Source: Pristiophorus japonicus
Lineage: Eukaryota
Length of the DNA stretch: 64,000 nucleotides
Reading direction: 5' to 3'
NCBI RefSeq assembly: GCF_044704955.1
Contig: NW_027252668.1
Coordinates: 3,968,001 to 4,032,000 of the forward strand
The translations under genes were made by a program, and so were the position numbers. Of the stretch, positions 17,463 to 17,723 are shown piece by piece (the stretch's first letter is position 1; every line of letters begins with the position of its first letter). Below the pieces are notes generated by a model that had not been told where the DNA came from, did not search any database, and saw only the letters and a program-made list of their open reading frames with translations.

Positions 17463-17723
17463 TGCTCTTAGCCAAAAGGCCTCGAGCCACTGCACCGTTC
17501 CTGGAAGTACTGCAATACCAGGTTCGTGCCATGGAGGTGGATGGGTCAGGTCCCCCACACACCTCCGTGGAGGTGGATGAGTCAAGCCACCCCACCCACC
17601 TCCTGTTTCCAAAAAAGCAAGCATATACCTTCCTGATCCAGGGAGAACCACCCGGAGGTCATGGTGGCTACTCCCCTGTCAGGTCAGTTACGCATGGTCT
17701 TAGCCAAAAGGCCGAGAAGCGAT
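17463..17723 (-). ncRNA. Chimeric U2/U1 snRNA-derived element (SINEU-like retroelement or variant snRNA gene)
   Basis: 17723-17698 = ATCGCTTCTCGGCCTTTTGGCTAAGA (U2 nt 1-26); 17689-17634 = U1-like ACTGACCTGACAGGGGAG...GGTGGTTCTCCC; TTTTTTGG Sm-like site; two U2 stem-loop-III-like hairpins; CCTGGTATTGCAGTACTTCCAGGAACGGTGCA (U2 stem-loop IV and 3' end); then GGCCTTTTGGCTAAGA again. Confidence 0.85.

Follow-up and report, generated by a model that had tools for sequence, protein, structure and literature searches.

The snRNA-like element described here lies in the window, the whole 64,000-nucleotide stretch of Pristiophorus japonicus DNA that was analysed. It is a complete copy of a SINEU-type retroposon, a family that is probably copied by a Keno-like Tx1 LINE from sources captured in U2 genes. 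The family is dispersed and A-tailed and makes target-site duplications; an empty site exists for the window copy, targets are common to the SINE and the LINE, and some copies stand in register within U2 arrays. Genes for snRNAs have external promoters, so a SINE built from snRNA should be dead on arrival. The in-register copies offer a possible answer to the question of SINEU transcription, left open in Kojima's discussion of the crocodilian elements (PMC4494074), and suggest how promoter-less elements get transcribed. A single genome here contains candidate source genes together with an intact partner LINE and copies of very recent origin, so that the question can be tested directly. The findings also extend SINEU-type elements beyond crocodilians and link them to U2 targeting of the Keno type.

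Architecture and landing site of the window copy

An earlier note, made from the letters alone, had listed on the minus strand an exact U2 5' end of 26 nt, a U1-like segment, an Sm-like site, two U2 stem-loops III, a stem-loop IV and a second U2 5' hairpin. Segment alignments, the Rfam U2 model and folding have recovered each of these parts in that order (Table 1). The segments were aligned pairwise to the host genome's own U1 and U2 genes, with 500 shuffles each. Element positions 1-35 correspond to U2 1-35, 36-92 to U1 3-57 (score 54 against a best shuffle of 26, n=500), 109-158 to U2 100-147 and 155-234 to U2 109-186 (0/500 shuffles each), and 243-261 to U2 11-29 (0/500). The Rfam U2 model scored 56.4 bits over 17485-17723, above its cut-off of 46. 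The Rfam U1 model, by which the note would have judged the U1 segment, gave no match to the element even at E<=10; the U1 origin stands nonetheless because of the pairwise test and because older subfamilies are closer to U1 (81-87% over U1 3-47/52).

Table 1. Features of the SINE copy and of the adjoining H2A gene (positions in the window)
Feature	Position	Strand	Remarks
Host histone H2A gene	16931..17317	minus	intact 128-aa frame
Complete SINE copy, "subfamily D"	17371..17723	minus	353 nt including A8 tail
U2-derived head (U2 1-35, stem-loop I)	17689..17723	minus	first 26 nt exact
U1-derived segment (U1 3-57)	17632..17688	minus	44/58 columns, 0/500 shuffles
Predicted long hairpin, head to Sm-like site	17618..17696	minus	folding z -5.2 (subfamily D), 0/200 shuffles
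Sm-like site, CU6GG	17609..17617	minus	AU5G in subfamilies E, F
U2 3' domain: stem-loop III twice, then stem-loop IV	17490..17603	minus	
Duplicated stem-loop III	17569-17603 and 17532-17566	minus	
Second, internal U2 5' hairpin (U2 11-29)	17463..17481	minus	0/500 shuffles
Family-specific tail, 84 nt	17379..17462	minus	matches neither U1 nor U2 nor the partner LINE
A8 tail	17371..17378	minus	

The element had been thought to end at 17463 and to have no poly(A) tail. All 29 other top-scoring copies extend to the equivalent of 17371 and terminate in A; therefore the element is 353 nt long, 92 nt more than first drawn, and carries the A8 tail. Its identity to the consensus of the 30 top-scoring copies is 98.3%, with a private 3-nt deletion. 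Within the U1-derived segment the splice-donor-binding sequence is mutated, and stem-loop I keeps its stem with a decayed loop. The long hairpin is predicted to bury the donor-binding segment, and the window copy as a whole folds at z = -4.4. The U2 branch-point region is missing, as had been observed. The internal U2 5' hairpin is left over from an earlier element that also had a U2 head. A putative 12-nt resemblance between the tail and U6 is absent in older subfamilies and was set aside.

As regards transcription, the copy has a histone promoter upstream, not an snRNA promoter. It has no tRNA-like part and its T6 run is internal, which bears on an RNA polymerase III promoter; SINEU is itself described as an exception to the criterion of an internal promoter of that type (PMC4494074, in its treatment of SINE criteria).

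The neighbouring H2A gene is a bystander whose promoter was hit by the SINE. The insertion exchanged about 18-20 nt of this promoter, a stretch that, as we read the motif, includes the TATA-like TAYAAGA. Comparison with 24 paralogous H2A promoters on the same contig revealed a continuous empty site in 23 and an unrelated deletion in the remaining one; none of the 24 holds the element at that site. The absence of a target-site duplication, remarked upon earlier, is therefore true of the window copy, where a deletion was made instead, and fails for the family (see below). The other option of the note beside a SINEU-like family, a hybrid snRNA gene belonging to the histone repeat, would agree with a position in the H2A promoter next to an intact H2A frame. 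The 0/24 paralogous promoters, the deleted promoter sequence, the A tail and the thousands of dispersed copies refute it, and the SINEU-like alternative is the one that held. The histone location is incidental because the H2A paralogues have empty sites and the family is dispersed, and an insertion of this kind is in itself ordinary.

The second histone unit in the window was considered as an empty-site reference and rejected, as it is without H2A and the alignment is meaningless; at 58617-58700 it retains only the last H2A codons and the 3' stem-loop, the rest being replaced by repeats. Elsewhere in the histone cluster (C2056), two truncated SINEs (L052, L068) lie at nearly the same place, near what by eye is a putative H2B coding start, and a full copy (L070) occupies an H2A-H2B spacer, so that the cluster has been hit repeatedly. 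Window 37977-39002, also within the histone cluster, holds a minus-strand array of C2H2 zinc fingers.

The SINE family, its partner LINE and the U2 arrays

The copy-number check proposed with the empty-site comparison was likewise positive. A 25-nt 3' motif of the element has 2,411 exact matches genome-wide (control 0), a lower bound on copies, and a DNA search gave at least 42 matches of 91-100% identity on many contigs (40 of 1,453 candidates scored). A sample of 100 copies, anchored on this motif along contig C1, has a median identity to the consensus of 98.2%. Target-site duplications of 8-24 bp (median 13) flank 45 of them, against 30 of 1,981 (1.5%) in a control with mismatched flanks; 26 stand in tandem with another copy, and 55 begin within the first 22 nt. 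At the 45 duplicated sites the target reads roughly RGY|AW, in which the A is partly forced by the anchoring, and this fits the U2 site. Dispersed, multi-copy, short and non-coding, with a fixed 3' end and an A tail, the element is almost certainly a SINE, that is, a non-autonomous retroposon. It also shows what distinguishes the SINEU class: a U1/U2-derived head, a target preference in common with a Tx1-clade LINE, and propagation from master copies, seen in the chimeric junctions and subfamily-diagnostic changes that copies have in common. Three sequencing runs of one organism and study contain a fraction of 0.32-0.50 of the query words of the element.

Six subfamilies were distinguished, with letters A to F assigned here in an order that is itself inferred. 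Subfamily A consists of almost the whole U2 with a few bases of its 3' flank, joined to a second U2 head and a short tail. Subfamily B has the U2 head, U1 3-57, an Sm-like site and a single stem III; stem III is duplicated in C and D, the latter being the window type, E has acquired a new U2 head of ~50 nt, and F is a further variant. The subfamilies quickly replace one another, and the series amounts to a stepwise passage from a U2 gene to a SINE. One locus (L300, 142-344 as oriented) has five tandem copies of U2 12-53 ahead of two SINE copies.

The partner was sought through its targets. Seven of the 100 copies share one site in a Gypsy-like element; with 16,259 empty sites within two mismatches, the chance of such use is ~3 in 100,000 by our own arithmetic (20-bp window). 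This site has 52 A-tract junctions, and in 29 of the 30 read a member of the SINE family lies directly upstream (A tract only in the other). At one such site (L231) a truncated Tx1-type LINE and a SINE are enclosed in one common duplication. The 3' end of this LINE has 145 exact matches; among 30 read, seven stand in tandem with SINE-family copies and three occupy the Gypsy-like site. Comparison of the LINE 3' end with the SINE tail gave nothing better than E 5.3. Copies of the LINE are 96-98% identical and begin with a U2 head of ~44 nt. ORF1 encodes ZCCHC3-like and zinc-knuckle domains, and ORF2 (1147 aa; EN-RT-zf-RVT) is open in three of 12 longer stretches fetched, with an APE endonuclease, a reverse transcriptase and the Tx1-type domain order. 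The nearest named relatives of the protein are amphibian and fish LINE proteins (39-49%), and in a tree it groups at 97/96 with the pufferfish reverse transcriptase BAD04856.1, to which no element name is attached. None of the 30 LINE 3' ends read is directly followed by an array U2 gene, a pattern short of strict U2 specificity, and the LINE is Keno-like and not filed as Keno. It is very probably the partner of the SINE. What is new is a young, ORF-intact, U2-headed Tx1 LINE with the targets of the SINE, including the Keno site in U2 genes.

Mobilisation by Tx1 machinery, suggested in the earlier note, thus holds for this target-sharing LINE and not for the Tx1-like element of the window, which was tried as partner and rejected (34% protein identity, on a distant branch). 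The latter is a degenerate Tx1/L1-type element at 45700-51800 beside a CT repeat. A second recurrent SINE target, in an unnamed repeat, was met at five loci of the 100-copy sample (L132, L142, L145, L146, L173); other sites were each used two to four times. At 6/10 U1 loci (L031, L033, L037-L040) a diverged 3' end from the family of the partner LINE is situated ~530 bp upstream of the U1 gene; the U1 genes form inverted pairs 3-7 kb apart.

Junctions between an A tract and U2 position 38 occur 83 times in the genome (control 0). Most of the dispersed ones that were read interrupt type-A copies, where the same target site is present. On the main array contigs all 33 junctions were read, with 17 promoter-linked F SINEs, 14 LINE ends, one F SINE at a contig end, and one LINE with a truncated SINE. 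The arrays have 287 promoter-linked U2 starts; insertions thus account for no fewer than 33 junctions in them, and 17 of the 287 starts carry an F SINE in register at +1. At L041, for example, the U2 upstream region leads at +1 into a subfamily-F SINE, after which come an A tract, U2 38-191 and the usual 3' flank. The 230 bp upstream of the array insertions are those of uninterrupted U2 genes (100% by BLAST), and "promoter" here means the U2 upstream region as recognised by this match, not by PSE and DSE motifs; snRNA promoters are placed within about 220 bp upstream in the section of PMC4494074 concerned. Three of four LINE 5' ends fetched in arrays are likewise in register at +1, the fourth following U2 1-52 and filler. 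In one of the in-register LINE copies the letters are of the target type as far as U2 42, which is what a homologous junction would give.

These observations point to promoter capture as the likely main route by which the SINE is transcribed. The endonuclease of the LINE would favour the U2 gene site before nucleotide 38 with a relaxed specificity of roughly RGY|AW, so that most copies would scatter and some would land in U2 genes. Since the SINE and the LINE each carry U2 sequence at the 5' end, homology there could resolve an insertion at U2 +38; the head of the element would then replace U2 1-37 and stand at +1, with the U2 upstream region left intact. These in-register units would be the likely source genes, with the U2 snRNA promoter driving them and copies multiplying in the array, and the LINE protein would presumably act in trans on the SINE. 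We infer that the array copies are transcribed and parental, and the window copy would be a promoter-less daughter that landed by chance in one H2A promoter.

Host or transposon promoters in the flanks may instead drive transcription by read-through, the U2 heads being gained by template switching to U2 RNA, as Kojima has proposed for crocodilian SINEU (PMC4494074), and the array copies being passive victims of the target preference of the LINE. The discussion in that paper supports this course, as do the seven copies at one Gypsy-like site and a copy with an added U2 10-48 piece (L102). However, full-length copies have subfamily-specific head substitutions in common, so they derive from masters and not from separate switches. 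In the junctions shown, these copies also begin between +1 and +13 with no extension into the flank, and the SINE and the LINE are both in register with the U2 start. No array copy of the window's subfamily was found, which would suit read-through: 33 exact matches of its head type follow the last two promoter letters, none of them in array contigs, and the promoter was present at 0/18 of the 33 candidate places that were read. The source of this subfamily may have been lost from the array, may be unassembled, or may never have been there. Taken together, read-through appears improbable, and promoter capture remains the preferred reading.

The relation of the array copies to the dispersed ones is close. 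Five dispersed F copies are at least 99.1% identical to the array copy over aligned columns; four of the five differ from it by a gap, so the array copy is not their exact parent and could be a passive daughter. The 17 array F copies comprise only two sequences (15 + 2), so they probably go back to a single insertion that was amplified in the array or, across unplaced contigs, was counted more than once. Only one of the 100 motif-anchored copies is at the U2 +38 site.

The array unit is ~765 bp long (L044 and others), with GTT and GAT microsatellites between the genes. Array insertions are regionally concentrated: at one array end (G000:C19:69.62-69.72 Mb) all 16 of the 16 junction units read have a LINE or SINE insertion, and contig C1003 is almost clean (one junction). 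A second U2-like sequence, with eight differences and another upstream region, was found at G000:C9:111.0-111.3 and 113.4-113.8 Mb (L283, L292, L294); it is embedded with LINE 3' fragments in repeats of 18-40 kb and is probably amplified retro-debris, not genes.

RNA structure and the truncation hotspot

Stems that still pair had been taken in the earlier note as a sign of RNA-level constraint. In the 3' domain, common variants fall in 0/68 paired and 8/44 unpaired columns of 96 aligned copies (Fisher p 0.0004, for copies that are related and so do not make 96 independent tests). Constraint is thereby supported for the source lineage and not for the inserted window copy. The loop motif of stem-loop IV is retained in 79 of 84 distinct bodies, and the U1 donor-binding and loop sequences are identical to the U1 gene in none of the 84.

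These features bear on a further explanation, that a functional family of variant snRNA genes resides in the U2 array, its structure kept for a host function and its RNA retroposed as processed pseudogenes. Conserved stems, an Sm-like site, the retained loop of stem-loop IV, variants confined to unpaired columns and the 17 array units would all be expected of such genes. The array copies, however, are themselves insertions, followed by an A tract and then U2 38-191, the U1 recognition sequences have decayed in every body, and the subfamilies turn over quickly; a host gene family is accordingly very unlikely.

Folding predicts a long hairpin from the head to the Sm-like site in subfamilies B to F (z -2.8 to -5.2). 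In subfamily E, five head changes from U2 strengthen this hairpin from -23.1 to -34.7 kcal/mol. In type A, the oldest, the hairpin 5' of the Sm site is not significant (z -1.8, 11/200 shuffles). The corresponding region of the U2 gene itself folds as well as that of the SINE (z -4.5); the fold by itself is therefore no distinguishing feature.

Truncated copies are concentrated at one place: immediately 3' of the Sm-like site, at 114-140, lie the start points of 31 of the 45 (binomial test against a uniform distribution, p 2e-22). Five begin at 23-113 and five at the corresponding position in the second hairpin, among them some single-hairpin variants. Literature searches have found no prior report of a truncation hotspot of such kind. 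The preferred reading, held at about even chances, is that an Sm ring on the RNA blocks the reverse transcriptase just 3' of the Sm site, where the starts indeed cluster. The hotspot is nevertheless equally strong in subfamily E (6/19; AU5G) and in C/D (19/59; CU6G) and thus does not track the quality of the Sm site, and the second hairpin is an imperfect control, the first being more perfect. A less likely course, which accounts for the hotspot too, is cleavage of the RNA within its U-rich single strand, the end then being trimmed back as far as the first strong hairpin before it is copied. Pausing of the enzyme within the G-rich hairpin is unlikely, since the second hairpin would be met first.

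A broader proposal, put forward tentatively, is that the element behaves as a selfish snRNA. Its sources would be renewed by homing into U2 genes, and capped snRNA made from the U2 promoter would be loaded with Sm proteins and pass through snRNP export and re-import to the LINE protein. Selection would have folded the intron-recognition sequences of U1 and U2 into the long hairpin and so spared splicing. If this is true, the Sm ring on the template RNA would have left its footprint in the genome as the truncation hotspot.

Comparison with known systems

The SINEU class (SINEU-1, -2 and -3, with Tx1-Mar LINEs) has been reported from crocodilians only, according to the account of their distribution in Kojima (2015, PMC4494074), and the entry on SINEU in a 2017 review gives the crocodilian range again (PMC5381603). 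Literature searches, with subscription journals, Repbase and Dfam outside their scope, have found no SINEU beyond crocodilians and no promoter capture in U2 arrays. The present SINE has much in common with crocodilian SINEU, namely U1/U2 heads added repeatedly, an A tail, target duplications or deletions, tandem insertions, a favoured site in another transposon, an internal oligo-T, a U2-headed Tx1 partner, and a tail unlike that of the LINE. It differs, as far as the crocodilian elements are described in the relevant parts of PMC4494074, in its U2-U1-U2-U2 order with a near-complete U2 3' domain, in a favoured transposon site that is Gypsy-like instead of Mariner-N4, and in a partner LINE that is young, ORF-intact and still entering U2 genes. 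It comes from a 5.9 Gb genome outside the scope of that study and has candidate source copies under a U2 upstream region, where the published discussion leaves transcription open. By the features tested the element belongs to the SINEU class.

Keno (Kojima and Fujiwara 2004) is a U2-gene-specific Tx1 LINE that inserts 37 nt from the U2 5' end, as summarised in PMC6136364, PMC4640811 and PMC4494074. The partner LINE resembles it in its APE-type endonuclease and in inserting before the same quoted U2 sequence (nucleotide 38), and departs from Keno, as characterised in those summaries, in its relaxed specificity, many dispersed copies, heritable U2 head and dependent SINE. No Keno-dependent SINE inside U2 arrays was found in the literature searched. 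Utopia, in the portion of Kojima and Jurka (2015, PMC4640811) that treats its targets, uses the same U2 site, with strict and weak specificity mixed across families, by means of a restriction-like endonuclease in contrast to the APE type found here.

The closest mechanistic parallel is the R2 SIDEs of Drosophila rDNA (Eickbush and Eickbush 2012, PMC3414825, in its outline of these elements). They too are non-autonomous, live in an array of the target RNA gene, and combine transcription of the host gene with the protein of a site-specific LINE, as would be the case here. SIDEs arise from R2/R1 by internal deletion and carry a ribozyme, whereas the present SINE is made of snRNA pieces and is dispersed genome-wide; since the host 5' end is replaced by its own head, it would not need a ribozyme.
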